From a virus (lineage: Duplodnaviria; Heunggongvirae; Uroviricota; Caudoviricetes), in the IMG/VR virus record IMGVR_UViG_2563366976_000005: 13,080 bases of DNA. One strand, written 5' to 3'. Shown here one piece after another: positions 1 through 13,080 of this stretch. Every line of letters begins with the position of its first letter. The first letter of the stretch is position 1. Both the position numbers and the translations under genes were made by a program. Under the pieces are notes generated by a model. The model did not search any database and was not told the origin of the DNA. It was given only the letters and a program-made list of their open reading frames with translations.

Positions 1-1284
1 TTACTTCTTCGCCTCTGCAACCACTTTACTACCCACGCCGCGGTTATTGTATTCCCACATGCGGTTGTAGTTAGTGTCATTCAGATTGCGCTGTATTTCG
101 TCGTTATCATCTACGCTGCCGGTATTACCCGCAAACGGACGATTAGAGATCACCGCATCGGCCCACGGTTTAGCCGTGTTAAAACCTTCGTTGATGGCGC
201 TATCACGGATCACCACCTGACCGTTGGTATTGGCATCAACATCCAGCGAGCGGCCCAGTTGCGCCACACCATCACCGAAAGCATTGAAACGGCTGTTTAC
301 GGCGAGGAAACCGTAGTAAATGTTGGACAGCGTAGCCGGTGCAAACACATACGCTTCTTGCTGAGTACGTGAGTTCACCACGCGGAATTCGGTGTTATCG
401 AACACCACTGCGCCGCGACCAGAAACGATATCCACATCCCCTTCAATGTAGCTGTTGGTCACCAGCGTACGCGGCTGACGATTCGTTTCCAGACGGTTCT
501 GCACACCGCTGTTGGTGACAAAGAAGGTGTTCTGACGACCGAGAATGTTAACGTTGTTAATCTGTACCTGGTCACCATCAGTACGCAGTGCCACCGCCGG
601 ATGGTTACCTGCATCTACGCTATCGCCCAGCGTGTTTTCGATGGTCAGATTTTGCAGTTGCAGGCCATTGTTTTGTGACCAGAAGACCGCAGAGCAGAGA
701 ACACCGATACTGTCGCTGCGTTTGCTCTGGCAGCTATCGTACATATACCACGCTGGTTTACCTGGCATATATTTGCCGCGCGGGTTGACGTCGTGACGCC
801 AGTCGGCAGGGCTCATGCCACCATCAAGGGAAAGCCCAATCTTCACATCAATCGGTTTTTCACCTGTACCGTACAGAGTAATTCCACCCGGAGCGGCAGG
901 GACATATACCGTTCCCTGATACTCACCAGGCATCACGGCAATATACTGGCGCTTGTTGGTACGCTTGATAATTGCCGCATCTACCGCCGCCTGAATCGTG
1001 GTATGCGTTACACCTTGAGTGCCCGCCGGGCCGACAACAAAGTCAGGTTGCGCAGGCAGGGTAATCGGGGAAGGATTCCACGCTGCAGCACCTGGTGTCA
1101 GGGATGCAAAATAGTGTTGAGCATCGAAATTCTGCGCTTCTTTTGCCGACAGAATCGGGCGAGAAGAGGTACCAGGCGCGGTTTGATCAGAAGGACGTTG
1201 ATCGGGCGGGGTTGAGCTACAGGCGGTCAGCGTCACGCCAAAAGCCAATGCCAGCGCCAGACGGGAAACTGAAAATGTGTTCAC
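1..1284 (-). CDS. ybhC: YbhC outer-membrane lipoprotein (pectinesterase-family acyl-CoA thioesterase), host gene flanking attB-lambda
   Basis: Full 427-aa ORF with a lipoprotein signal (LTACSS lipobox). The sequence matches the E. coli YbhC that I recall. It lies immediately next to the lambda att core, as in the chromosome order ybhC-attB-ybhB-bio. Confidence 0.9.
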   Translation of the reverse strand: MNTFSVSRLALALAFGVTLTACSSTPPDQRPSDQTAPGTSSRPILSAKEAQNFDAQHYFASLTPGAAAWNPSPITLPAQPDFVVGPAGTQGVTHTTIQAAVDAAIIKRTNKRQYIAVMPGEYQGTVYVPAAPGGITLYGTGEKPIDVKIGLSLDGGMSPADWRHDVNPRGKYMPGKPAWYMYDSCQSKRSDSIGVLCSAVFWSQNNGLQLQNLTIENTLGDSVDAGNHPAVALRTDGDQVQINNVNILGRQNTFFVTNSGVQNRLETNRQPRTLVTNSYIEGDVDIVSGRGAVVFDNTEFRVVNSRTQQEAYVFAPATLSNIYYGFLAVNSRFNAFGDGVAQLGRSLDVDANTNGQVVIRDSAINEGFNTAKPWADAVISNRPFAGNTGSVDDNDEIQRNLNDTNYNRMWEYNNRGVGSKVVAEAKK

Positions 1285-1319
1285 AGGTTGCTCCGGGCTA
1301 TGAAATAGAAAAATGAATC

Positions 1320-1425
1320 CGTTGAAGCCTGCTTTTTATACTAAGTTGGCATTATAAAAAAGCATTGCTTATCAATTTGTTGCAACGAACAGGTCACTAT
1401 CAGTCAAAATAAAATCATTATTTGA
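1320..1425. other. Prophage attL. The core-like sequence GCTTTTTATACTAA is at 1331-1344, the IHF H' site (TATCAATTTGTTG) at 1370-1382, and the Int arm-type sites P'1-P'3 (AGGTCACTAT, CAGTCAAAAT, AAATCATTAT) at about 1392-1422
   Basis: Host-like sequence GAAGCCTGC lies to the left and phage P' arm sequence (GTTGGCATTATAAAAAAGCATTGCTTATCAATTTGTTGCAACGAACAGGTCACTATCAGTCAAAATAAAATCATTATTTG) to the right, matching the lambda attL that I recall. The int stop codon falls inside the P' arm, as in lambda. Confidence 0.85.
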
Positions 1426-2488
1426 TTTCAATTTTGTCCCACTCCCTGCCTCTGTCATCACGATACTGTGATGCCATGGTGTCCGACTTATGCCCGAGAA
1501 GATGTTGAGCAAACTTATCGCTTATCTGCTTCTCATAGAGTCTTGCAGACAAACTGCGCAACTCGTGAAAGGTAGGCGGATCCCCTTCGAAGGAAAGACC
1601 TGATGCTTTTCGTGCGCGCATAAAATACCTTGATACTGTGCCGGATGAAAGCGGTTCGCGACGAGTAGATGCAATTATGGTTTCTCCGCCAAGAATCTCT
1701 TTGCATTTATCAAGTGTTTCCTTCATTGATATTCCGAGAGCATCAACATGCAATGCTGTTGGGATGGCAATTTTTACGCCTGTTTTGCTTTGCTCGACAT
1801 AAAGATATCCATCTACGATATCAGACCACTTCATTTCGCATAAATCACCAACTCGTTGCCCGGTAACAACAGCCAGTTCCATTGCAAGTCTGAGCCAACA
1901 TGGTGATGATTCTGCTGCTTGATAAATTTTCAGGTATTCGTCAGCCGTAAGTCTTGATCTCCTTACCTCTGATTTTGCTGCGCGAGTGGCAGCGACAGGG
2001 TTTGTTGTTATATGGCCTTCAGCTATTGCCTCTCGGAATGCATCGCTCAGTGTTGATCTGATTAACTTGGCTGACGCCGCCTTGCCCTCGTCTATGTATC
2101 CATTGAGCATTGCCGCAATTTCTTTTGTGGTGATGTCTTCAAGTGGAGCATCAGGCAGACCCCTCCTTATTGCTTTAATTTTGCTCATGTAATTTATGAG
2201 TGTCTTCTGCTTGATTCCTCTGCTGGCCAGGATTTTTTCGTAGCGATCAAGCCATGAATGTAACGTAACGGAATTATCACTGTTGATTCTCGCTGTCAGA
2301 GGCTTGTGTTTGTGTCCTGAAAATAACTCAATGTTGGCCTGTATAGCTTCAGTGATTGCGATTCGCCTGTCTCGGCCTAATCCAAACTCTTTACCCGTCC
2401 TTGGGTCCCTGTAGCAGTAATATCCATTGTTTCTTATATAAAGGTTAGGGGGTAAATCCCGGCGCTCATGACTTCGCCTTCTTCCCAT
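1418..2488 (-). CDS. int: Lambda integrase (tyrosine recombinase), 356 aa
   Basis: The translation MGRRRSHERRDLPPNLYIRNNGYYCYRDPRTGKEFGLGRDRR... ...HLLGHKSDTMASQYRDDRGREWDKIEIK matches lambda Int over its full length. It overlaps xis by 23 nt, as in lambda. Confidence 0.97.
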   Translation of the reverse strand: MGRRRSHERRDLPPNLYIRNNGYYCYRDPRTGKEFGLGRDRRIAITEAIQANIELFSGHKHKPLTARINSDNSVTLHSWLDRYEKILASRGIKQKTLINYMSKIKAIRRGLPDAPLEDITTKEIAAMLNGYIDEGKAASAKLIRSTLSDAFREAIAEGHITTNPVAATRAAKSEVRRSRLTADEYLKIYQAAESSPCWLRLAMELAVVTGQRVGDLCEMKWSDIVDGYLYVEQSKTGVKIAIPTALHVDALGISMKETLDKCKEILGGETIIASTRREPLSSGTVSRYFMRARKASGLSFEGDPPTFHELRSLSARLYEKQISDKFAQHLLGHKSDTMASQYRDDRGREWDKIEIK

Positions 2489-2684
2489 TTCTGATCCTCT
2501 TCAAAAGGCTACCTGTTACTGGTCGATTTAAGTCAACCTTTACCGCTGATTCGTGGAACAGATATTCTCTTCCATCCTTAACCGGAGGAGGGAATATCCT
2601 GCATTCGCGCACCCATCGACGAACTGTTTCAAGGCTTCTTGGGCGTCGCTGGCGAGCGTTCCACTCCTGAAGTGTCAAGTACAT
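2466..2684 (-). CDS. xis: Lambda excisionase Xis, 72 aa
   Basis: MYLTLQEWNARQRRPRSLETVRRWVRECRIFPPPVKDGREYLFHESAVKVDLNRPVTGSLLKRIRNGKKAKS is lambda Xis. It overlaps the int start. Confidence 0.95.
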   Translation of the reverse strand: MYLTLQEWNARQRRPRSLETVRRWVRECRIFPPPVKDGREYLFHESAVKVDLNRPVTGSLLKRIRNGKKAKS

Positions 2685-2710
2685 CGCAAAGTCTCCGCAA
2701 TTACACGCAA

Positions 2711-2732
2711 GAAAAAACCGCCATCAGGCGGC
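2711..2732 (-). terminator. Rho-independent terminator for leftward (pL-distal) transcription, just upstream of xis
   Basis: On the - strand the sequence reads GCCGCCTGATGGCGGTTTTTT. This is a 5-6 bp GC stem with a 4-nt loop followed by a T6 run. Confidence 0.55.
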
Positions 2733-2901
2733 TTGGTGTTCTTTCAGTTCTTCAATTCGAATATTGGTTACGTCTGCATGTGCTATCTGCGCCCACAGCA
2801 TCCAGTGGTTATAGCAGTCGCTGATGTTCTCGGCTTCGATAACTCTGTTGAATGGTTCTCCATTCCATTCACCTGTAACTCGGAAGTGCATTTATCATCG
2901 C

Positions 2902-2960
2902 CATAAAACAAAACTCGCCGTAGCGAGTTCAGATAAAAGAAAACCCGCACTCGGCGGGTT
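2902..2960 (-). terminator. Tandem pair of rho-independent terminators on the - strand
   Basis: Hairpin A is CCCGC-ACTCG-GCGGG (2944-2958), followed on the - strand by TTTCTTTTATCT. Hairpin B is ACTCGC-CGTA-GCGAGT (2914-2929), followed on the - strand by TTTGTTTTATGG. Confidence 0.5.
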
Positions 2961-3239
2961 CGCATTCGTTCAAATTGCGTTTACTTCTTGGCGTTCTGTT
3001 CATCCATATCGATATACCATGGGTTGCTTCCCTTGGGCATGTTTAACGACTGCTCGCGATAGTATCTGATGCGCTCCATGAAATACTCGCGTGAGTGCTC
3101 AGGTTGCTCTCATGATACCTGCTCAGTGATAACAGGTATGTTAAGGCGCTCTCTGTACTCCATGCCTGATGCTGCAAGGTCAACGTTTACCTTGTTCTGT
3201 TTTTCTTTCGATTTCTCGGCGATGTTATGCCTGACATTG

Positions 3240-3524
3240 TCAACCCGCCTCCTTCTGAACATAACGGTTATAAATCAGTCCCTGAGGGCCATAAGGAAGC
3301 GGGATGTGCAACTCCTCTGGTTCAGAAACTATCCATTCCCCGGCCATCTCCGCTGGAGAGGTAATGATAAGTTGTTTGCTAATAAAAGGACCACTCCTCT
3401 CAACAACAAGCTTACCATCTTCATTAATAAAAGCTTGGATGTCAGGTGTGCTTCCACACTTGGTGATGCAGCGTTTGAACATTTTGTGTCCCCCCATTTT
3501 ATGGACGGGGTAATTATAACACAT
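3240..3524 (-). CDS. Hypothetical small protein in the ea8.5 position. The true start is more likely the internal M (MFKRC...) at about 3482, which has a GGGGGA Shine-Dalgarno
   Basis: ORF of 94 aa (80 aa from the SD-supported start), in a low-GC region. It occupies the lambda ea8.5 position between xis and the ea22 neighbourhood. I cannot confirm homology from memory. Confidence 0.4.
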   Translation of the reverse strand: MCYNYPVHKMGGHKMFKRCITKCGSTPDIQAFINEDGKLVVERSGPFISKQLIITSPAEMAGEWIVSEPEELHIPLPYGPQGLIYNRYVQKEAG

Positions 3525-3608
3525 TGAAATATAGTAATATTTGACGTAGATTTCTTTTGATCTATAAGCGATTTTTTAATGCTTTTAAGTTATAAATACT
3601 TGTTTTCA

Positions 3609-4184
3609 TCACCCATCTTGCTGCGGTGCTACTATTGAAAAGTACTCACACCCTTTAGCCCAAATAGTTTTGATAGTTGTCCAACTGACTGGAACCTTGA
3701 TTTCGATTCTTCCGCTGCCGTCACAAGTTTCGCAATCATCATCACCAAAGCATTCCGGGCAGCTTATAAACGTAGTTTCTGAAAATTCACCGGATAGCAC
3801 ACCCTTAGCGCCGTTCTCAGCGGTTAGTTTCTTCGGCACTATAACCCAACCATCCGGAGTTACCGGAGAATTGCCATTTATATCGAAGTTTGGCTCTGCG
3901 TCCTGAACCAGGAGGATGTAACCATTCTTGGCAGTATCAAGTTCTAACGCCTCGGTGACGGTACCGAAATAGCGATTACCTAAATCCGCATCACAAGTGC
4001 TTACATCAATGGAAACCTCCATGCCTTCGATTAATTCTGGCAAGTTGTAAGTTTGGCTTACAGGTTCTGCTCCCAGTGATGCCAGTGCAATTCGTGCCAG
4101 TTCCATTTGTTCGCCACGAGTAAGCCCGTTTTCAAGCGGATTTTTAATGAACAATTCAATACGTTCTTTGGTAATAGTGGTCAT
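3609..4184 (-). CDS. Hypothetical protein (191 aa) with a C-terminal DnaJ-type CxxCxGxG zinc-ribbon motif (CPECFGDDDCETCDGSGRIE)
   Basis: Clean ORF with an AAGGA Shine-Dalgarno 7 nt upstream of the ATG. It starts 10 bp after the stop of the upstream TGT-like gene, so they form an operon. GC content is lower than in the lambda core genes. Confidence 0.7.
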   Translation of the reverse strand: MTTITKERIELFIKNPLENGLTRGEQMELARIALASLGAEPVSQTYNLPELIEGMEVSIDVSTCDADLGNRYFGTVTEALELDTAKNGYILLVQDAEPNFDINGNSPVTPDGWVIVPKKLTAENGAKGVLSGEFSETTFISCPECFGDDDCETCDGSGRIEIKVPVSWTTIKTIWAKGCEYFSIVAPQQDG

Positions 4185-4194
4185 TTGTTAGTCC

Positions 4195-4950
4195 TTAAAC
4201 TGCTAGTTGCAATTGCATTTCAAAGCGGTCGCGTTGTTCACAATACGCAAGAGAACCAGGGCTATTGTGTGCCTCAATCCGTTCTACCATTAATGCTGCG
4301 CGTGTCTCTTTACTTGCAGGTGCATAAGCCCCAGACCAGGCTTTATCAATACCGATGTTTCGAGCGACGTTCGTACTATCTGCGCTGGCTAAGGGTAATT
4401 TTGTGAATATCAGCGGATTTAACATGCGCAATCCATGTAGTTTCGTAACCGGCTGACCATGCCCATCAACAATGTGACGAATCAGGTCTTTCATTCTGGC
4501 TACCGCAAGAGTTGGGCGCTTTACGTCATAGTCGCCACAACTACCGATAGCCACTCGCGGAAACTCATTGCACAAATGAATAAATCGCTCGTCACTTTCA
4601 TTCATGTGCCACACTGGAACGCCAGCTAGTTTTCCGTGAGGCCACTCATTCAGAAGCGCATCATTTTCCTCCTCTCCGCCATCAATAACATCCGGGATAA
4701 TGGCAAAATCGAATCCTGGGTGATTCTTCCAGCGAGCAACAAACTCGTAGTAATCGCTCCAGTCGATTTTGTTTTTGCCAGCTGCTTTCCAGGCGGTGAA
4801 TGCACCGTTGTCCAGCGCGAACGACTGACAGTATTCAGCCGCGAGATTGATCTGGCCTGAATGCGCAAAACTGATAAACGCATGTCGCCCTTTCCATGCT
4901 CTCATTGCGCACGTATCAGGAGTAATAGGCCCACCGTGGTAGTGAATCAT
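4195..4950 (-). CDS. tRNA-guanine transglycosylase (TGT)/DpdA-like protein, 251 aa. This is a candidate 7-deazaguanine DNA transglycosylase
   Basis: An AAGGAG Shine-Dalgarno precedes the ATG at 4950 (MIHYHGGP...). The ORF track extends a 265-aa version to 4992, overlapping the upstream gene. Four motifs occur in the same order and similar spacing as the bacterial TGT catalytic core that I recall: LDNGAF resembles TDSGG(F/Y)Q (nucleophile Asp), RVAIGSCG resembles YAVGGLAVG, KLHGLRM resembles HYLMGVG, and ADSTNVARNIG resembles FDCVLPTRSGRNG (second catalytic Asp). There is no C-terminal Zn subdomain, consistent with minimal phage DpdA-type enzymes. Confidence 0.5.
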   Translation of the reverse strand: MIHYHGGPITPDTCAMRAWKGRHAFISFAHSGQINLAAEYCQSFALDNGAFTAWKAAGKNKIDWSDYYEFVARWKNHPGFDFAIIPDVIDGGEEENDALLNEWPHGKLAGVPVWHMNESDERFIHLCNEFPRVAIGSCGDYDVKRPTLAVARMKDLIRHIVDGHGQPVTKLHGLRMLNPLIFTKLPLASADSTNVARNIGIDKAWSGAYAPASKETRAALMVERIEAHNSPGSLAYCEQRDRFEMQLQLAV

Positions 4951-4951
4951 C

Positions 4952-5359
4952 TCACTCTCCTTTGATGCGAATGCCAGTAGCGCGGATTGCATCGATGACT
5001 TCAGAAACTTTGTATGCCATTACCGTTTGGTAATCATCGTGAAAATCTGTTCGATGAAGCATGCTGCTACGTTCCGGGAGCAGTATTTCCCGCGCTTCCA
5101 GTTCTGCAATGCGCTTTTTTGCTGCTTCCAGTTCATCCAGTAATTCCAGCACGGTAGCCGGATTAGCCTTGGCAACAAAATCCCGGACTGGCTTACAATC
5201 AATCTCCGCAATGGGTTGATACGATGTGTAGCCATGCTGTCTTGTATAACTACCGTGACGAATAACGAAAAAATCACCATTTATTTTTTTAGCCTGCCAC
5301 TTATCTTCACCGGCTTTCTCTGCCGCTTCACGCAGTGCCTGAGAGTTAATTTCGCTCAC
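4952..5359 (-). CDS. Ea22-like protein (short form, 135 aa) with a GTG start
   Basis: The N-terminus MSEINSQALREAAE and C-terminus ...GIRIKGE resemble lambda Ea22 termini as I recall them. The middle is a coiled-coil (LLDELEAAKKRIAELEAREI). The start codon is GTG, overlapping the TGA of the upstream orf73. Confidence 0.6.
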   Translation of the reverse strand: MSEINSQALREAAEKAGEDKWQAKKINGDFFVIRHGSYTRQHGYTSYQPIAEIDCKPVRDFVAKANPATVLELLDELEAAKKRIAELEAREILLPERSSMLHRTDFHDDYQTVMAYKVSEVIDAIRATGIRIKGE

Positions 5360-5577
5360 GTCGAACCTCTCTGTTTACTGATAAGCTCCAGATCTTGCTG
5401 GCAACTGGCACAAGTCCGACAACCCTGAACGGCCAGTCGTCTTCGTTCATCTATCGGATCGCCACACTCACAACAATGAGTGGCAGATATAGCCTGGTGG
5501 TTCAGGCGGCGCATTTTTATTGCTGTGTTGCGCTGTAATTCTTCAATTTCTGATGCTGAATCAATTATGTCTGCCAT
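5356..5577 (-). CDS. DksA/TraR-family C4 zinc-finger protein (lambda orf73-like), 73 aa
   Basis: CCECGDPI...CRTCASCQ forms a CxxC-x17-CxxC zinc finger in a 73-aa protein. This is the size and architecture of TraR and lambda Orf73, which are RNAP secondary-channel binders. Confidence 0.75.
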   Translation of the reverse strand: MADIIDSASEIEELQRNTAIKMRRLNHQAISATHCCECGDPIDERRRLAVQGCRTCASCQQDLELISKQRGST

Positions 5578-5675
5578 CTTTCATTAATCCCTGAATTGTT
5601 GGTTAATACGCTTGAGGGTGAATGCGAATAATAAAAAAGGAGCCTGTAGCTCCCTGATGATTTTGCTTTTCATGT

Positions 5676-5957
5676 TCACCGTTCCTTAAAGACGCCGTTC
5701 AACATGCCGATCGCCAGGCTTAAATGAGTCGGTGTGAATCCCATCAGCGTTACCGTTTCGCGGTGCTTCTTTAGTACGCTACGGCAAATGTAATCGACGT
5801 TTTTATCCGGAAACTGCTGTCTGGCTTTTTTGATTTCAGAATTAGCCTGACGGGCAATGCTGCGAAGGGCGTTTTCTTGCTGAGGTGTCATTGAACAAGC
5901 CCCATGTCGGCAAGCATAAGCACACAGAATATGAAGCCCGCTGCCAGAAAAATGCAT
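5676..5957 (-). CDS. Small early-left ORF in the lambda orf61 position. An alternative start at MTPQQ (about 5891) would give 71 aa
   Basis: Positional correspondence in the orf61-orf63-orf60a-exo string. The start is ambiguous: a weak Shine-Dalgarno precedes the first ATG and GGGG precedes the internal ATG. Confidence 0.5.
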   Translation of the reverse strand: MHFSGSGLHILCAYACRHGACSMTPQQENALRSIARQANSEIKKARQQFPDKNVDYICRSVLKKHRETVTLMGFTPTHLSLAIGMLNGVFKER

Positions 5958-5967
5958 TCAGTGGTTG

Positions 5968-6159
5968 TCATACCTGGTCTCTCTCATCTGCTTCTGCTTT
6001 CGCCACCATCATTTCCAGCTTTTGTGAAAGGGATGCGGCTAACGTATGAAATTCTTCGTCTGTTTCTACTGATATTGGCACAAACCTGACTCCAATTTGA
6101 GCGAGGCTATGTGCCATCTCGATACTCGTTCTTAACTCAACGGGAGATGCTTTGTGCAT
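5968..6159 (-). CDS. Lambda orf63 homologue (63 aa)
   Basis: The size is exactly 63 aa. It overlaps orf60a by 28 nt, as in lambda, and the sequence [23 protein letters not shown]... is consistent with lambda orf63. Confidence 0.8.
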   Translation of the reverse strand: MHKASPVELRTSIEMAHSLAQIGVRFVPISVETDEEFHTLAASLSQKLEMMVAKAEADERDQV

Positions 6160-6314
6160 ACAGCTCCCCGTTTATTATTTATCTCCTCAGCCAGCCGCTG
6201 TGCTTTCAGGGGATTTCTGATAACAGAAAGGCCGGGAAATACCCAGCCTCGCTTTGTAATGGAGTAGACGAAAGTGATCGCGCCCACCCGGATATTATCG
6301 TGAGGATGCGTCAT
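6132..6314 (-). CDS. Lambda orf60a homologue (60 aa from MTHPHD...)
   Basis: The start at the second Met gives 60 aa and an ATGA overlap with the exo stop, exactly the lambda arrangement. The track ORF is 2 codons longer (MAM...). Confidence 0.8.
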
Positions 6315-6991
6315 CGCCATTGCTCCCCAAATACAAAACCAATTTCAGCCAGTGCCTCGTCCATTTTTTCGATGAACTCCGGCACCATCTCGTCAAAACT
6401 CGCCATGTACTTTTCATCCCGCTCAACCACGACATAATGCAGGCCTTCACGCTTCATACGCGGGTCATAGTTGGCAAAGTACCAGGCATCTTTTCGCGTC
6501 ACCCACATGCTGTACTGCACCTGGGCCATGTAAGCCGACTTTATGGCCTCGAAACCACCGAGCCGGAACTTCATGAAATCCCGGGAGGTAAACGGGCATT
6601 TCAGCTCAAGGCCATTGCCGTCACTGCATAAACCATCGGGAGAGCAGGCGGTACGCATACTTTCGTCGCGATAGATGATCGGGGATTCAGTAACATTCAC
6701 GCCGGAAGTGAATTCAAACAGAGTTCTGGCGTCGTTCTCGTACTGTTTTCCCCATGCCAGCGCCTTAGCATTAACTTCCGGAGCCACACCGGTGCAAACC
6801 TCAGCCAGCAGGGTGTGGAAGTAGGACATTTTCATGTCAGGCCACTTTTTTCCGGAGCGGGGTTTTGCTATCACATTGTGAACTTCTGAAGCGGTGATGA
6901 CGCCGAGCCGTAATTTGTGCCACGCATCATCCCCCTGTTCGACAGCTCTCACGTCGATTCCGGTACGCTGCAGGATAATGTCCGGTGTCAT
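6311..6991 (-). CDS. exo: Lambda exonuclease (Red-alpha), 226 aa
   Basis: [65 protein letters not shown]... ends ...[11 protein letters not shown]. This is lambda Exo, and it overlaps the bet stop. Confidence 0.97.
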
Positions 6992-7773
6992 GCAGCCACC
7001 TTCTGCTCAGTGGCTTTCTGTTTCAGGAATCCAAGAGCTTTCACTGCTTCGGCCTGTGTCAGTTCTGACGATGCGCGAATGTCGCGGCGAAATATCTGGG
7101 AACAGAGCGGCAATAAGTCGTCATCCCATGTTTTATCCAGGGCAATCAGCAGAGTGTTAATCTCCTGCATGGTTTCATCGTTAACCGGAGTGATGTCGCG
7201 TTCCGGCTGACGTTCTGCAGTGTATGCGGTATTTTCGACAATGCGCTCGGCTTCATCCTTGTCATAGATACCCGCAAATCCGAAGGCCAGACGGGCACAC
7301 TGAATCATGGCTTTATGCCGTAACATCCGTTTGGGATGCGACTGCCACGGCCCCGTAATTTCTCTGCCTTCGCGGGTTTTGAATGGTTCGCGGCGGCATT
7401 CATCCATCCACTCGGTAACGCAGATCGGATGATTACGGTCCTTGCGGTAAATCCGGCATGTACAGGATTCATTGTCCTGCTCAAAGTCCATGCCATCAAA
7501 CTGCTGGTTTTCATTGATGATGCGGGACCAGCCATCAACGCCCACCACCGGAACGATGCCATTCTGCTTATCAGGAAAGGTGTAAATTTCTTTCGTCCAC
7601 GGATTAAGGCCGTACTGGTTGGCAACGATCAGTAATGCGATGAACTGCGCATCGCTGGCATCACCTTTAAATGCCGTCTGGCGAAGAGTGGTGATCAGTT
7701 CCTGTGGGTCGACAGAATCCATGCCGACACGTTCAGCCAGCTTCCCAGCCAGCGTTGCGAGTGCTGTACTCAT
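6988..7773 (-). CDS. bet: Lambda Bet (Red-beta single-strand annealing protein), 261 aa
   Basis: [64 protein letters not shown]... matches lambda Bet. Confidence 0.97.
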
Positions 7774-7778
7774 CCGTT

Positions 7779-8075
7779 TTATACCTCTGAATCAATATCA
7801 ACCTGGTGGTGAGCAATGGTTTCAACCATGTACCGGATGTGTTCTGCCATGCGCTCCTGAAACTCAACATCGTCATCAAACGCACGGGTAATGGCTTTTT
7901 TGCTGGCCCCGTGGCGTTGCAAATGATCGATGCATAGCGATTCAAACAGGTGCTGGGGCAGGCCTTTTTCCATGTCGTCTGCCAGTTCTGCCTCTTTCTC
8001 TTCACGGGCGATCTGCTGGTAGTGACGCGCCCAGCTCTGAGCCTCAAGACGATCCTGAATGTAATAAGCGTTCAT
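7779..8075 (-). CDS. gam: Gam (RecBCD inhibitor), 98-aa GamS form
   Basis: [60 protein letters not shown]... ...[10 protein letters not shown] is lambda GamS. A strong AGGAG Shine-Dalgarno lies 8 nt upstream. The in-frame upstream sequence reads ...FRSSAM but hits a TAA before any ATG, so there is no 138-aa long form. Confidence 0.9.
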
Positions 8076-8150
8076 GGCTGAACTCCTGAAAATGGCTGTG
8101 AAAATATCGCCCGCGAAATGCCAGGCTGATTAGGAAAACAGGAAAGGGGA

Positions 8151-8561
8151 TTAGCGATTCAGGCCGTTACCGCGTCCGTCGAGAAAAACTTCCACGAGCA
8201 AATCACGGGTATAAGTGCGCTCGATGCCGCGATGCAGATAAAGCCGTCCGCGTAAATTAGCTGATGCAGTCCAGGTACCATCTTTGTGTTTGACCAGCAT
8301 TCCTGGCATGACCGCACCTCGATTAACGGTCTGCGTTCCGTAATGTTGATGAACCATAAAAACTCCTGCCCGTAAGCTGGGCTGCTGAACATATAGAGAC
8401 TTCTGCGCGTATTCAGGCGGTGGATGGCCGCCGGTTGTCATAACTAAGTCGCCTCGTTGAAGCGACTGAGGTATGAAGTGTTGAGTTGATTTCAGCTGGT
8501 CACACCGACGTTCACGCGTCCGCTTCACCCCTCGCACTCCCCGAAGCCTGCTGAAATTCAA
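8151..8561 (-). CDS. First gene of the pL operon. It is a hypothetical protein with an N-terminal arginine-rich motif (VKRTRERR) and may be an N-like antiterminator. The start is uncertain: TTG at 8561 per the track, GTG at about 8528 with a GGGAG SD, or the first ATG at 8441
   Basis: It lies immediately downstream of the oL/pL operators in the position of lambda N. KRTRERR resembles the ARM of lambda N (TRRRERR) and P22 N (TRRHERR). There is no in-frame ATG before codon 41. The rest of the protein is unlike lambda N. Confidence 0.35.
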
Positions 8562-8635
8562 ACTGCGGATCTAAGCGGTCATCGCAACGGTGAAACAGGT
8601 GGTTACCGTATCGTTGTGTCGTTGCGATGAATTTA

Positions 8636-8705
8636 TTTAAAACTATAGTTGTTTTATCGTCAACAACAAAAGTTGTTTTGTCGGTTGTTTTAAATATAAC
8701 TGGTT
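8636..8705 (-). promoter_or_regulatory. oL/pL. Clustered GTTGTT/AACAAC operator half-sites overlap a leftward promoter (- strand TTGACG -N17- TTAAAT)
   Basis: The + strand reads AGTTGTTTTATCGTCAACAACAAAAGTTGTTTTGTCGGTTGTTTT. It contains GTTGTT-N8-AACAAC and AACAAC-N4-GTTGTT palindromes and shares the core GTTGTTGAC(G/T)A(T)AAAACAAC with the cI-cro intergenic operator. Confidence 0.6.
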
Positions 8706-8799
8706 GTATTTAGGATGGATTTATTTTGTGACTTGCATCGCATAGCGATAACTGAAGTGAGGTGTGGTGGTTTTTTGGACGGTATGAGTTATGAGGGGG

Positions 8800-8830
8800 A
8801 GGAAAAGAAAACCCGGCGCGGTTGCCGGGT
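8800..8830 (-). terminator. Rho-independent terminator directly downstream of the lipoprotein gene
   Basis: On the - strand the sequence reads CCCGGC-AACCGC-GCCGGG followed by TTTTCTTTTCC. Confidence 0.6.
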
Positions 8831-8837
8831 ATGATTA

Positions 8838-9218
8838 TCAGTCAGCCCAACCTGATTTCGAGTTTATTTGGGTTTCTGACATTGTGTATTTCTTAATCGT
8901 GTCATCGTTAAAAAGAATAGTAAGTTCTTTTTTCGTACCGTTCGTTCCATTATGGAATAATCCATAGAATGGAATAAAAGTGGTGCCATTAACTTTTACT
9001 TTTGCAAAGGCGTACTTCCAGATCTCGTTTCCACTGTCAGTATATGAAACAGCATCAGGAGAACCAAAGTAAGATTTAACCTCATTCTTGGTTGTTTTAC
9101 CTTCCTGAAGTTTAGACTGGACACTAATTTCAGTTTCATTTTTGAGTTGCTGGTTGCCTGAAGAAGCACACCCAGCCAATACAGATGCCATCATGGCAGC
9201 GATTAGGATTTTTCTCAT
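8838..9218 (-). CDS. Outer-membrane lipoprotein, 126 aa, with a BamE/SmpA-OmlA-like fold. It is a moron in the rex position and a candidate superinfection-exclusion protein
   Basis: Signal peptide plus lipobox (MRKILIAAMMASVLAGCASS). The pattern TTKNEVKSYFGSPD...EIWKYAF...ELTILFNDDTIKKY resembles the BamE pattern MTKQQV..LGTP...WFYVF...LTLTF. The gene is AT-rich, lies between cI and oL, and has its own terminator. Confidence 0.8.
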   Translation of the reverse strand: MRKILIAAMMASVLAGCASSGNQQLKNETEISVQSKLQEGKTTKNEVKSYFGSPDAVSYTDSGNEIWKYAFAKVKVNGTTFIPFYGLFHNGTNGTKKELTILFNDDTIKKYTMSETQINSKSGWAD

Positions 9219-9447
9219 TTTATGTTTCCATTCATTATAATCAGAAACATCTTAACATAATGATTCGAAATAAAAACCGCTACGAGATAGGGGGACATTT
9301 TGCTGACAGTAGCAACAAATCTCAGCTAACAACGAGAATATTTACTGAAATATGCAAACAGATTTGGCGTTCTTATAGAGAATTTAGTGCAATATCTAAT
9401 CCGAGTGGTATAAACCTTAACCTTCGCTCCCTTAAGTCGTAGATAAA

Positions 9448-10137
9448 TTAACCATGCTTCCTGTACGTCTGCGGCATGCTTCCAATGACCTTACCGAATA
9501 TGAACACCCGGTTCATCTCGTCTTTCTCGATCGGGTCCCACGGCGAGTAGCTCTTGTTATCAGAGATAACCAGCAGCTTATCCTTCATCATTTGAAGACG
9601 TTTTACATGGGCAGTGTCGTCGTACAGAAACGCATAGATGCCATCACCGTCGAAAGATTTAACAGTGATATCAACGAACAGCAGGTCACCTGGTTCGATC
9701 GTCCCTGACATGCTGTCACCTCGCACGTTAATGATGCGGATATTTTCCGCCTTCCTGCCATCGAACATGTGACGAGCATCGTCAAACGAGTACTCAACCG
9801 AGCGTAGAACTTCTACAAACTCACGGTTGATTACACCTGGCCCGGCACTGACTTCTATATCAAGAACGTCAATTTTGAAGTATTTGGAATGGCTGACAGT
9901 TGATTGTATTGGTTGCACTGTACTGTCTGACATATTTCCAACGCCAGAAGATAACCATTCTGCGCGCACACCCAAAGCGTTCGCGATCTCCACGATTTTA
10001 GTTGTTTGGTTAGCTTTCCCTGTTTCGATTTTCTGAATAGCAGCCTGGCTAACCCCGACCAAATCCCCAAGCGCCTTTTGTGTAAGGCCTCGCGCTAATC
10101 TGGCTTCTTTAAGTCTTTCTGAGAGTGTTGTTTTCAT
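9448..10137 (-). CDS. cI: CI-type prophage repressor (N-terminal XRE HTH plus C-terminal S24 LexA-like autopeptidase), 229 aa
   Basis: HTH segment LTQKALGDLVGVSQAAIQKIETGK. The C-terminus carries S24 motifs (VRGDSMSGTIEPGDLLFVD ... VKRL). It is divergent from the cro-like gene across an operator-rich 104-bp intergenic region. Confidence 0.9.
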   Translation of the reverse strand: MKTTLSERLKEARLARGLTQKALGDLVGVSQAAIQKIETGKANQTTKIVEIANALGVRAEWLSSGVGNMSDSTVQPIQSTVSHSKYFKIDVLDIEVSAGPGVINREFVEVLRSVEYSFDDARHMFDGRKAENIRIINVRGDSMSGTIEPGDLLFVDITVKSFDGDGIYAFLYDDTAHVKRLQMMKDKLLVISDNKSYSPWDPIEKDEMNRVFIFGKVIGSMPQTYRKHG

Positions 10138-10241
10138 AGATCAAATGTACAACCAAGGTTTTATTTCATCAAACGAAAATGGTTGTTGACTAAAAACAAC
10201 CATAGTTTTAATCTTGATTCGGATTAACCACGGAGGTTGTT
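10138..10241. promoter_or_regulatory. oR/pR/pRM region. A 25-bp palindromic operator ATGGTTGTTGACTAAAAACAACCAT (10179-10203) contains the pR -35 TTGACT. An extra GGTTGT half-site lies next to the cI start (10149-10158)
   Basis: A perfect inverted repeat, ATGGTTGTT/AACAACCAT, overlaps TTGACT-N17-TAATCT. A GGAGG Shine-Dalgarno lies 5 nt before the cro ATG. The operator matches the oL repeats. Confidence 0.65.
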
Positions 10242-10472
10242 ATGAACCCAGCAATCAAAACAGCGATCAATATCGTTGGTTCACAAAAGAAACTAGGCGA
10301 TGCCTGCGAAGTTTCACAGCAGGCCGTCTATAAGTGGCTTCACAACAAAGCAAAGGTATCCCCTGAACATGTCGGCAGCATTGTTACGGCTACTGGTGGA
10401 GTTGTGAAGGCATACCAGATTCGCCCGGATCTTCCGAAGTTGTTTCCACACACCGAAAAGAACGCAGCTTAA
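10242..10472 (+). CDS. cro: Cro-like repressor of the YdaS/P22-Cro family, 76 aa
   Basis: Small HTH protein (GSQKKLGDACEVSQQAVYKWLH) transcribed divergently from cI and followed by boxA. It belongs to the YdaS_antitoxin/P22 Cro-like family by its pattern. Confidence 0.85.
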   Translation: MNPAIKTAINIVGSQKKLGDACEVSQQAVYKWLHNKAKVSPEHVGSIVTATGGVVKAYQIRPDLPKLFPHTEKNAA

Positions 10473-10484
10473 ATTTCCATTTCA

Positions 10485-10497
10485 CGCTCTTTAACAA
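10485..10497 (+). promoter_or_regulatory. nutR boxA (CGCTCTTTAACAA), rrn-type consensus
   Basis: It matches the E. coli rrn boxA GCTCTTTAACAA exactly. It sits 13 nt after the cro stop and 45 nt before the next gene. I could not recognise boxB. Confidence 0.55.
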
Positions 10498-10541
10498 TAA
10501 GCAATCAACTTAACAGTCAATTCAAACTAAAGGAGTCAATT

Positions 10542-11081
10542 ATGCAACCACTTACATACCAACAGACTAGCGGATTTATTCCGACTGCGGTGATAAATCG
10601 TTCTCAAACAAAACAAGCTCCAGGCCACGAAAAAATCCGTGATGCCGTCCGCGCCTGGTCGGCTGTAGATAATCAGGATGTCGTTGCCGCACTCATTGTG
10701 AATGAGTATCGGGAGCAGGGCGACGGCACCATCGATTTCCCTGATGATGTCAGCCGTGCACGCCAGAAGCTGTTCCGCTTCCTCGATAACAAATTCGATT
10801 CTGAAAAATACCGAAATAACGTGCGTGAACTGACCCCGGCAATTCTGGCGGTACTACCGCTGGAATATCGCGGTTACCTGGTTGAGCAGGATAGCTTCAT
10901 GACTCGGTTGGCTGAAATGGAAAAGGAACTCAGTGAGGCAAAACAGGCTGTCATTCTCAACGCACCACGCCACCAGAAACTGAAGGAAATGAGTGAAGGT
11001 ATTGTGTCGATGTTTCGTGTGGACCCGGATCTGGCTGGTCCATTAATGGCGATGGTGACCACCATGCTGGGGGCAATATGA
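10542..11081 (+). CDS. YdaT-family protein (a CII-analogue regulator, annotated in databases as toxin YdaT), 179 aa
   Basis: It lies directly downstream of cro with an AAGGAG Shine-Dalgarno. The segment ELTPAILAVLPLEYRGYL matches the Rac YdaT segment KLIPAILAILPRELRHRL that I recall. Its position equals lambda cII. Confidence 0.75.
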   Translation: MQPLTYQQTSGFIPTAVINRSQTKQAPGHEKIRDAVRAWSAVDNQDVVAALIVNEYREQGDGTIDFPDDVSRARQKLFRFLDNKFDSEKYRNNVRELTPAILAVLPLEYRGYLVEQDSFMTRLAEMEKELSEAKQAVILNAPRHQKLKEMSEGIVSMFRVDPDLAGPLMAMVTTMLGAI

Positions 11082-11167
11082 CAGGTTCAGAAATGGCGAA
11101 AGTCGGTCTGCGGGAACAGAACCGACTTTCAGGTGCAAATCGTAACACACTCATTGCGGGAGGAATT

Positions 11168-12097
11168 ATGGCAAACACTGCTGAGATATTCAATTTTCCA
11201 GTGCCGGATGCGGCACAAAAGGAGCCGCGCGTGGCAGATCTCGATGATGGTTATACGCGCATTGCAAATGAGTTGCTGGAAGCTGTGATGCTGGCCGGAT
11301 TAACACAGCACCAGCTTCTGGTCTTCCTGGCTGTCATGCGCAAAACATATGGCTTTAATAAAAAACTGGATTGGGTGAGCAACGAGCAACTTTCCGAGTT
11401 GACCGGGATATTGCCGCACAAGTGTTCTGCTGCAAAAAGCGTTCTGGTAAAGCGTGGGATTCTTATTCAGAGCGGGCGGAATATCGGCATTAATAATGTG
11501 GTCAGTGAATGGTCAACATTACCCGAATCAGGTAAGAAAAATAAAGTTTACCTGAAAGAGGTAAATTTACCTGAATCAGGTAAGAAAAGTTTACCCAAAT
11601 CAGGTAAAGGCGTTTACCCGAATCAGGTAAACACAAAAGACAAACTAACAAAAGACAATATAAAACCTTTTTCGTCCGAGAATTCTGGCGAATCCTCTGA
11701 CCAACCAGAAAACGATCTTCCTGTGGAGAAACCAGATGCTGCAATTCAGAGCGGCAGCAGGTGGGGGACAGCAGAAGACCTGACCGCCGCAGAGTGGATG
11801 TTTGACATGGTGAAGACCATCGCGCCATCAGCCAGAAAACCGAATTTTGCAGGGTGGGCTAACGATATCCGCCTGATGCGTGAACGTGACGGACGTAACC
11901 ACCGCGACATGTGCGTGCTGTTCCGCTGGGCATGCCAGGACAACTTCTGGTCCGGTAACGTGCTAAGTCCGGCCAAACTCCGCGACAAGTGGACCCAACT
12001 CGAAATCAACCGTAACAAGCAACAGGCTGGCGTGACAGCCGGAAAATCAAAACTCGACCTGACAAACACTGACTGGATTTATGGGGTGGATTTATGA
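11168..12097 (+). CDS. O: Replication initiator O. The N-terminal iteron-binding domain is non-lambda and the C-terminal P-interaction domain is lambda-type
   Basis: The start is chosen at ATG 11168 (MANTAEIFNFPVPDAAQKEPRVADLDDGY...), which has a GGGAGG Shine-Dalgarno and aligns with the lambda O N-terminus MTNTAKILNF...NVADLDDGY. The track ORF begins earlier, at 11078. The C-terminal 130 aa (FSENSGESSDQPENDL...NTDWIYGVDL) match lambda O. The stop overlaps the P start (ATGA). Confidence 0.9.
   Translation: MANTAEIFNFPVPDAAQKEPRVADLDDGYTRIANELLEAVMLAGLTQHQLLVFLAVMRKTYGFNKKLDWVSNEQLSELTGILPHKCSAAKSVLVKRGILIQSGRNIGINNVVSEWSTLPESGKKNKVYLKEVNLPESGKKSLPKSGKGVYPNQVNTKDKLTKDNIKPFSSENSGESSDQPENDLPVEKPDAAIQSGSRWGTAEDLTAAEWMFDMVKTIAPSARKPNFAGWANDIRLMRERDGRNHRDMCVLFRWACQDNFWSGNVLSPAKLRDKWTQLEINRNKQQAGVTAGKSKLDLTNTDWIYGVDL
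11519..11675 (+). repeat. ori iterons. Five 17-bp palindromic repeats TTACC(C/T)-N5-(A)GGTAA at 11519, 11548, 11567, 11591 and 11614, followed by an AT-rich A/C-rich region (11631-11675)
   Basis: Copies are TTACCCGAATCAGGTAA, TTACCTGAAAGAGGTAA, TTACCTGAATCAGGTAA, TTACCCAAATCAGGTAA and TTACCCGAATCAGGTAA at 19-29 bp spacing inside the O linker, then ACACAAAAGACAAACTAACAAAAGACAATATAAAACC. The architecture matches ori-lambda but the iteron sequence differs. Confidence 0.8.
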
Positions 12098-12771
12098 AAA
12101 ACATCGCCGCACAGATGGTTAACTTTGACCGTGAGCAGATGCGCCGGATCGCCAACAACATGCCGGAACAGTACGACGAAAAGCCGCAGGTACAGCAGGT
12201 AGCGCGGATCATCAACGGTGTGTTCAGCCAGTTACTGGCAACTTTCCCGGCGAGCCTGGCTAACCGGGACCAGAACGAACTGAACGAAATCCGCCGCCAG
12301 TGGGTTCTGGCTTTCCGGGAAAACGGGATCACCACAATGGAACAGGTTAACGCAGGAATGCGCGTAGCCCGTCGGCAGAATCGACCATTCCTGCCATCAC
12401 CCGGGCAGTTTGTCGCCTGGTGCCGGGAAGAAGCATCCGTTACCGCCGGACTGCCAAACGCCAGCGAGCTGGTTGATATGGTTTACGAGTATTGCCGGAA
12501 GCGTGGCCTGTATCCGGACGCAGAGTCTTATCCATGGAAATCAAACGCGCACTACTGGTTGGTTACCAACCTGTACCAGAACATGCGGGCCAATGCGCTG
12601 ACTGACGCGGAATTACGGCGTAAAGCTGCCGATGAGCTGACCTGTATGACCGCGCGAATTAACCGTGGTGAGGCGATACCTGAACCAGTAAAACAACTTC
12701 CTGTCATGGGCGGTAGGCCTCTAAATCGTGCACAGGCTCTGGCGAAGATCGCAGAAATCAAAGCGAAGTGA
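12094..12771 (+). CDS. P: Replication protein P (DnaB loader). On my recollection of lambda P (233 aa) it is C-terminally truncated at residue 225 by an IS insertion
   Basis: MKNIAAQMVNFDREQMRRIANNMPEQYDEKPQVQQV... matches lambda P through ...LAKIAEIKAK. As I recall it, lambda P continues FGLKGASV. Here the TGA stop is the first 3 nt of the IS terminal repeat. Confidence 0.9.
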   Translation: MKNIAAQMVNFDREQMRRIANNMPEQYDEKPQVQQVARIINGVFSQLLATFPASLANRDQNELNEIRRQWVLAFRENGITTMEQVNAGMRVARRQNRPFLPSPGQFVAWCREEASVTAGLPNASELVDMVYEYCRKRGLYPDAESYPWKSNAHYWLVTNLYQNMRANALTDAELRRKAADELTCMTARINRGEAIPEPVKQLPVMGGRPLNRAQALAKIAEIKAK

Positions 12772-13080
12772 ACCGCCCCGGGAATCCTGGAGACTAAACT
12801 TCCTGAGAAAGAGGTAAACAGGATGACTAAAAATACTCGTTTTTCCCCTGAAGTCCGTCAACGGGCAGTCCGTATGGTTCTGGAAAGTCAGGGCGAATAT
12901 GACTCACAATGGGCGACAATTTGTTCCATTGCTCCAAAGATTGGCTGTACGCCGGAGACTCTGCGTGTCTGGGTTCGCCAGCATGAGCGGGATACCGGGG
13001 GCGGTGATGGAGGGCTCACCACCGCTGAACGTCAGCGTCTGAAAGAGCTGGAACGTGAAAATCGTGAACTGCGCCGCAGT
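12769..13080 (+). mobile_element. Left end of an IS3-family insertion sequence (IS629/IS1203/IS3411-like). It continues beyond the window
   Basis: The terminal sequence TGAACCGCCCCGGGAATCCTGGAGACTAAACTTCCTGAGAAAGAGGTAAACAGG precedes orfA. It has the IS3-family 5'-TGA end. Confidence 0.8.
12823..13080 (+). CDS. IS3-family transposase OrfA (HTH, leucine-zipper part), partial with its 3' end outside the window
   Basis: [86 protein letters not shown] matches the IS629/IS1203 OrfA that I recall. The ORF is open to the window end. Confidence 0.85.

Follow-up and report, generated by a model that had tools for sequence, protein, structure and literature searches.

The locus studied here raises the question of whether P, a replication gene in a lambda-like prophage, owes its early stop to an insertion sequence (IS), and what this would mean for the prophage. 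It lies at the end of a window of 13,080 nucleotides (the whole stretch of DNA that was analysed), belonging to a virus of the Caudoviricetes (IMG/VR record IMGVR_UViG_2563366976_000005). A sequence-only reading of this DNA had proposed that P is truncated by an IS3-family element that also provides its stop codon, and that the prophage is defective and cryptic.

Gene P and the adjoining IS629 element

Gene P directly follows replication gene O in the pR operon, the stop codon of O overlapping the start codon of P (Table 1). Its product is a member of the helicase loader family on the basis of a 208-bit match to PF06992 (Phage_lambda_P; cutoff 26). The predicted protein counts 225 amino acids and ends in ...AQALAKIAEIKAK (also given as ...NRAQALAKIAEIKAK). 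Aligned with residues 1-225 of lambda P, it shows 98% identity with five substitutions, and Lys225 is the last residue that can be matched; lambda P itself continues with FGLKGASV up to residue 233. The alignment thus bears out the initial claim that P follows lambda P through AEIKAK and then lacks the last eight codons. In the ancestral 233-aa protein, these codons encoded FGLKGATV, and the C-terminal lasso of the loader (domain IV, residues 193-233) is consequently incomplete, Phe226 to Val233 being missing. The 225-aa product is labelled by PGAP as an ordinary 'replication protein P', free of any partial or pseudogene flag, and the PF06992 model spans only residues 39-198 of P, leaving the C-terminus outside, so that an in-frame IS terminus can mask a truncation from routine annotation.

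Table 1. Features of the window at and around the P-IS629 junction.
Feature	Window position	Strand	Evidence
Replication gene O, intact	11078..12097	+	ORF list; PGAP on identical gene; Pfam Phage_rep_O
Truncated replication gene P (225 codons + TGA)	12094..12771	+	Translation; Pfam; lambda P alignment
Left target-site duplication AAG (codon Lys225)	12766..12768	+	AAG/IS/AAG in L001 and in scaffold L006
P stop TGA (opening triplet of the IS left end)	12769..12771	+	Sequence; translation; empty-site comparison
IS629 (IS3 family), first 312 bp of 1310	12769..13080	+ (P orientation)	311/312 vs the same-site copy of NZ_AP045810.1
Left terminal inverted repeat (IRL) of IS629	12769..12796	+	Comparison with right end of full copy in L001
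IS orfA, 5' part (86/108 codons)	12823..13080	+	Pfam HTH_Tnp_1, 49 bits

Counted from the stop codon of P, the left end of the IS begins with TGAACCGCCCCGGGAATCC... (also given as TGAACCGCCCCGGGAATCCTGGAGACTAAAC...), and the ATG of orfA stands 52 nt past this stop, at the distance originally noted. The edge of the window falls inside orfA and the remainder of the IS is outside the window; the 312 bases that are inside match full copies of the element at 311/312 and 310/312 positions. A complete copy of 1310 bp was found at the same site in Escherichia coli 23CRST038 (NZ_AP045810.1, here locus L001, positions 20270-21579; window position = L001 position - 7501). This full copy encodes a 108-aa orfA (HTH_Tnp_1) and an orfB (rve/DDE, 97.9 bits) recognized by Pfam, the latter also matching the NCBIfam model NF033516 'IS3 family transposase' (315.7 bits, cutoff 160), and PGAP annotates a programmed -1 frameshift between orfA and orfB together with a pseudoknot feature ('AL1L pseudoknot'). 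Its ends read TGAACCGCCCCGGG... and ...CCCGGGGCGGTTCA, of the TG...CA type, with 25/28 repeat positions paired and the first 14 perfect. The element therefore displays all the hallmarks of the IS3 family, namely TG...CA inverted repeats, a length within about 1.2-1.55 kb with orfA and orfB joined by a -1 frameshift, and a target duplication of 3-4 bp. No Rfam family matched the window at gathering thresholds.

IS629 was originally described in Shigella sonnei, and elements more than 90% identical in nucleotides or more than 95% identical in amino acids are conventionally treated as isoforms. With S. sonnei and O157 copies taken as proxies for the ISfinder type sequence, the IS at the window site shares 99.3% identity over 1310 bp with a plasmid copy of S. 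sonnei Ss046 and 95.9-96.0% with the pO157 and O157-type copies that PGAP names IS1203. The element is thus an isoform of IS629, and the suggestion that an IS629/IS1203-like member of the IS3 family adjoins P holds, as judged from these identities and from the IS3-family domain matches.

The junction and the empty site

The IS is inserted after nucleotide 675 of P, in the same orientation as the gene. The ends of IS3-family elements start with 5'-TGA and, the insertion being in frame, P ends exactly at the IS boundary and carries no IS-encoded tail. The idea that the stop of P was donated by the terminal TGA of the IS stands with one refinement: the T at 12769 is also found where P is uninterrupted (AAG TTC), which leaves only the 'GA' of the stop as unambiguously derived from the IS, and its T is assigned to the element on account of the TG...CA ends and the AAG duplication.

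The right end of the IS and the 3-bp target duplication, which had been named as features to look for in a longer contig, were both found, with AAG as the duplication, in NZ_AP045810.1 and in scaffold KB732669.1 (GCA_000351465.1, locus L006). The scaffold, which is among the contigs encoding the exact 225-aa protein and is probably where the window comes from, shows 0 mismatches over 3,987 compared bases (window 9094-13080), followed by a 1375-base N-gap (L006 3988-5363) that begins exactly at the window end, 312 bp into the IS, whose interior was left unassembled; beyond the gap come the right end of the IS, AAG and the last eight codons of P. In 23CRST038, with 2 base differences from the window, TTCGGACTGAAAGGAGCAACTGTATGA follows the right IS end and AAG; it encodes FGLKGATV and a stop, which the ATG of ren overlaps. 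A chimeric join induced by a repeated IS copy could in principle create such a junction, given that short-read assemblies commonly break at IS copies and that the window stops inside the IS at a scaffold gap, but an artefact of this kind is hardly credible here, since both junctions with matching AAG are present in a complete genome assembly as well as in the scaffold, and the left junction is repeated in independent ENA metagenome and NCBI assemblies. An exact scan for the junction in GTDB species-representative genomes gave 0 matches. Three JGI metagenome contigs retrieved by a degenerate junction scan were discarded as chance 22-mer matches, their flanks being about 25-29% identical.

An empty site is present in strain N10 (NZ_CM165902.1, locus L004), which shows 0 mismatches to window positions 1-12769 and has no IS at the site. 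Its P is a 233-aa protein ending KAKFGLKGATV*, the same as the window P through residue 225, and in-silico removal of the IS and of one AAG from L001 yields the exact N10 sequence. Phage genomes agree with this. Indeed (i) 152 records of the phage collection carry a P gene with a DNA identity of 90% or more and, among the matches listed, every phage P ceases to match at the junction, position 676 of 678 in the window gene, (ii) in an evenly spaced sample of 40 tblastn hits, 25/25 lambda-type P genes reach residue 233, (iii) no lambda-type P stopping at KAK was found among the phage records examined, and (iv) a Klebsiella homologue of 67% identity keeps FGL. Distant P-like loaders (HK639, PHB10) have no FGL motif, yet extend 4-5 residues beyond the cut point. 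Intact relatives ending P at ...KAK would have dissociated the short protein from the insertion; lambda-type P proteins run to residue 233 instead, and the site in N10 is empty. The truncation of P is caused by the IS insertion.

A second insertion bears on the age of this event. Strain 61_150228 (NZ_AP026099.1, locus L003 3230-4640) carries an IS1203 isoform at the identical nucleotide of P, in the same orientation and with the same AAG duplication, in a different, decayed prophage adjoining icd. The two elements differ at 52 of 1310 positions (96.0% identity), the two P alleles are 96.6% identical, and the 225-aa P of 61_150228 occurs on 9 contigs. The similar divergence of IS and P is what would be expected if the short P were native, or an ancient shared state from which sister strains regained an empty site by precise excision, and IS-excision enhancers promoting IS629 excision are known (bioRxiv 10.1101/2023.06.07.543989). 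Such a history is nonetheless very improbable: the IS of the window is 99.5% identical to copies elsewhere in sister prophages and only 96% identical to the copy of 61_150228, the two prophages do not have the same bases beside the junction (GCG AAG versus GCT AAG), the flanks are the same as in the empty-site genome over 12.7 kb, and protein records place the full-length protein on 644 contigs versus 43 for the exact 225-aa window P. The differences within the IS and at the junction also rule out that the two insertions are the same event. On the evidence of these alignments, the insertion in the window is derived, not ancestral, and it is recent, as the zero divergence from N10 across the 12.7-kb left flank shows.

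Predicted effect on the loader and state of the prophage

Very probably, an active IS629 transposed into the 3' end of P in a lambda-like prophage; the accompanying loss or weakening of replication is the part that we infer. IS629 (IS3 family, 1310 bp) would have jumped into P by copy-out/paste-in, the established transposition mode of the IS3 family, duplicating AAG (Lys225) and leaving P to terminate as a clean 225-aa form. Loss of FGLKGATV would remove the distal third of the C-terminal lasso helix, including Phe226, and the shortened loader would probably bind or open DnaB less well, so that prophage replication after induction may be weakened or abolished. The 1.3-kb IS would moreover part P from ren, nin and Q within the pR transcript and could lower Q-dependent late expression. 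The net outcome would probably be a lytic growth that is partly or wholly crippled, in a prophage whose immunity, Red recombination genes and morons would stay intact.

In the 2.66 Å structure of DnaB with lambda P, domain IV of P (residues 193-233) forms the C-terminal lasso, whose helix is ordered to residues 231-233, buries about 1400 Å2 and packs against the DH/LH helices of DnaB, Phe226 touching Met301 and Leu305; this lasso was proposed to be probably the first element of P to bind DnaB (PMC12661323). The residues missing from the window P represent about one third of the lasso segment that is ordered (211-232). Compared with the lambda loader (PDB 8V9T; PMC12661323), the window P has the same domains I-III, domain III providing the larger interface, and the same proximal lasso helix with its contacts Ala215, Lys218, Ile219 and Ile222, but is devoid of residues 226-233. 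A loss of P replication function is plausible on this structural basis, and the defect is likely to be biologically significant, in the form of a weakened or dead loader. The literature searched yielded no experiment on P(1-225) or on any other lambda P shortened at its C-terminus.

It is rather unlikely, though a serious alternative, that the insertion is real and near-neutral, P(1-225) loading DnaB adequately, transcription reading through the IS and the prophage remaining inducible. Most contacts of the lasso helix and all of domains I-III are kept, and the distant homologues do without Phe226; however, this residue is a named DnaB contact in a lasso that may bind first, the FGLKGA(S/T)V tail is found in every lambda-type P among the phage records examined, and even the Klebsiella homologue retains FGL. 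No strong intrinsic terminator was predicted on the + strand inside the IS, so that polarity on the downstream genes may be small or modest, which would suit a near-neutral insertion, as would the persistence of the truncated allele on its 43 contigs. The intact Q, lysis, head, tail and J genes of the sister genome weigh in the same direction, and O157 prophages that look defective in silico often prove to be inducible (PMC2669165). A biologically significant defect of P is preferred over this alternative.

The prophage as a whole could be followed in a sister genome, where it is integrated between ybhC and ybhB, at the classical lambda attachment site, and keeps the nin genes, quuD (Q) and the lysis, terminase, portal, head, tail and J genes. 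The genes downstream of P (ren/nin and Q) are displaced as had been anticipated, by 1313 bp, yet they are present. The attL core was likewise correctly read as altered: it consists of CTGCTTTTTATACTAAG (window 1330-1344), with five T instead of the six of the canonical core, and six T are found in the attR of this sister genome (L010 16930-16945) and in the attL of M15 (L005 6330-6345). The window shares this deletion with 23CRST038 and N10, so that it is probably genuine; the B core-type Int site is displaced by one base, and excision might be impaired. IS-bearing and empty-site prophages alike have ren as a pseudogene, through a frameshift or an internal stop (L001 21606-21874; L004 18792-19060), and its loss is therefore older than the IS and unrelated to it. 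An IS2, itself cut by an IS629-like element, breaks the genes for the side tail fibre and for tail fibre assembly (L010 12541-16540); the full IS2/IS629 nest is common to 23CRST038 and N10, and in M15, MS 196-1 and NZ_CM185152 this region gives a shorter match (69% of the query) with one IS3-family element annotated. The prophage being otherwise nearly complete, its description as 'defective' and 'cryptic' stays at the level of what we infer from its sequence.

Several other features of the window were recorded. A holE-like gene for the theta subunit of DNA polymerase III (window 2981-3262, - strand; L001 10482-10763) has an internal stop, and is annotated as a pseudogene, in every sister genome examined. 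Neither an N gene nor any other annotated gene lies between kil and the presumed pL region (window 8358-8840, - strand). A missing N as a sign of decay was ruled out, since the isolated phage PhiR26_1 has the pL-leader-kil arrangement at 99% identity and other viable lambdoid phages have it too. The pL leader gave no sign of a put RNA like that of HK022, the fold of positions 8430-8580 (- strand) being no stabler than that of shuffled sequences (z = -0.22). A gene for a 126-aa lipoprotein (window 8838-9218, - strand), with a weak BamE/SmpA-like Pfam match and annotated by PGAP as 'SEN1984 family lipoprotein', has its own terminator-like hairpin and lies just downstream of cI; since lambda has rexAB at this place, it is probably a moron expressed in the lysogen. 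Finally, positions 10242-11081, from the operator region to O, encode a YdaS-like protein in the Cro position and a YdaT-like protein in the cII position, a layout that resembles the immunity region of the Rac prophage.

Recurrent insertions between P and Q and comparison with known systems

The interval from P to quuD (4431 bp; L004 18094-22524, and the same interval in L001, L005, L019, L020, L021 and L022) is essentially identical in eight complete genomes, six of which (6/8) carry an IS, at five sites. These are five independent insertions, four of IS629 and one of IS21, located as follows, counted from nucleotide 1 of P: position 675 in P (IS629, +, duplication AAG; 23CRST038, the window allele), position 719 in ren (IS629, -, duplication ATT; SW070919 and DLI.6n), position 1750 in an intergenic region (IS629, +, duplication TGG; M15), position 3135 in ninE (IS21, -; strain 582) and position 3708 in rusA (IS629, +, duplication CTC; MS 196-1). 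By contrast, the IS of the tail fibre region is common to at least five of the eight genomes. Several other lineages, including CFT073, also carry an IS629-like element within ren or immediately after it. A rough Poisson estimate under a generous uniform model gives at most about 0.17 expected IS629 insertions between P and Q for four observed, a suggestive lead only, as the interval was chosen post hoc and IS629 has a preference for prophages. The stretch from P to Q may tentatively be regarded as a recurrent IS target, either as a regional hot spot or through selection for lysogens whose pR operon, from replication to Q, is crippled, although the odds are somewhat against it.

The insertion resembles those of IS629/IS1203 in lambdoid prophages of O157:H7 and Shigella, with which it shares the 1310-bp length, the TG...CA ends, the -1 frameshift between orfA and orfB and the 3-bp duplication. 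IS629 was described as generating duplications of 3-4 bp, as residing mostly in prophages (62% of the O157 copies lie in prophages or prophage-like elements) and as having no sequence-specific targets (PMC3271280), and the position of an IS can alter the behaviour of a prophage, as in phiPA2 versus phiPA8 (PMC10810198). The present case differs from the O157 cases in that (i) the isoform is of the S. sonnei type (99.3%) and not of the O157 IS1203 type (96%), (ii) the host belongs to a non-O157 human commensal or extra-intestinal lineage, and (iii) the IS has struck P at its extreme 3' end, with a clean loss of eight residues and not a gross disruption.

An IS within P of a lambda-type prophage also has a precedent in the spontaneous IS2 insertion recovered by the Hayes laboratory among survivors of replicative killing, a documented escape of lysogens from prophage replication and P toxicity (PMC4926192). 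That IS2 lies in the early part of P, past lambda nt 39690, and leaves P without function (complementation EOP about 1e-6; PMC4926192), whereas the window P loses only its last eight codons. Among isolated phages, the viable N-less lambdoid Escherichia phage PhiR26_1 (PV340555.1) is 98.6% identical in nucleotides over exo-bet-gam-kil-pL-lipoprotein-cI-cro-ydaT-O-P and has the same pL leader/kil layout without N, but it encodes a full-length P of 233 aa that is directly followed by ren, with no IS there.

In summary, the event is of an ordinary and already known kind, an IS629 insertion into a gene of a lambdoid prophage, and the allele is already present in public genomes. It shows how an in-frame IS terminus can conceal a truncation from annotation, and this natural, clean P(1-225) allele, together with the isogenic empty-site strain N10, could be used to gauge the share of the last eight lasso residues in DnaB loading. 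Follow-up might be worthwhile only for the repeated IS hits between P and Q; together with the same-site hit elsewhere, they could provide a small data set on prophage disarming or on the target choice of IS629. If this stretch is indeed a recurrent target, the insertion in the window would be one case of parallel prophage domestication and not a random hit.
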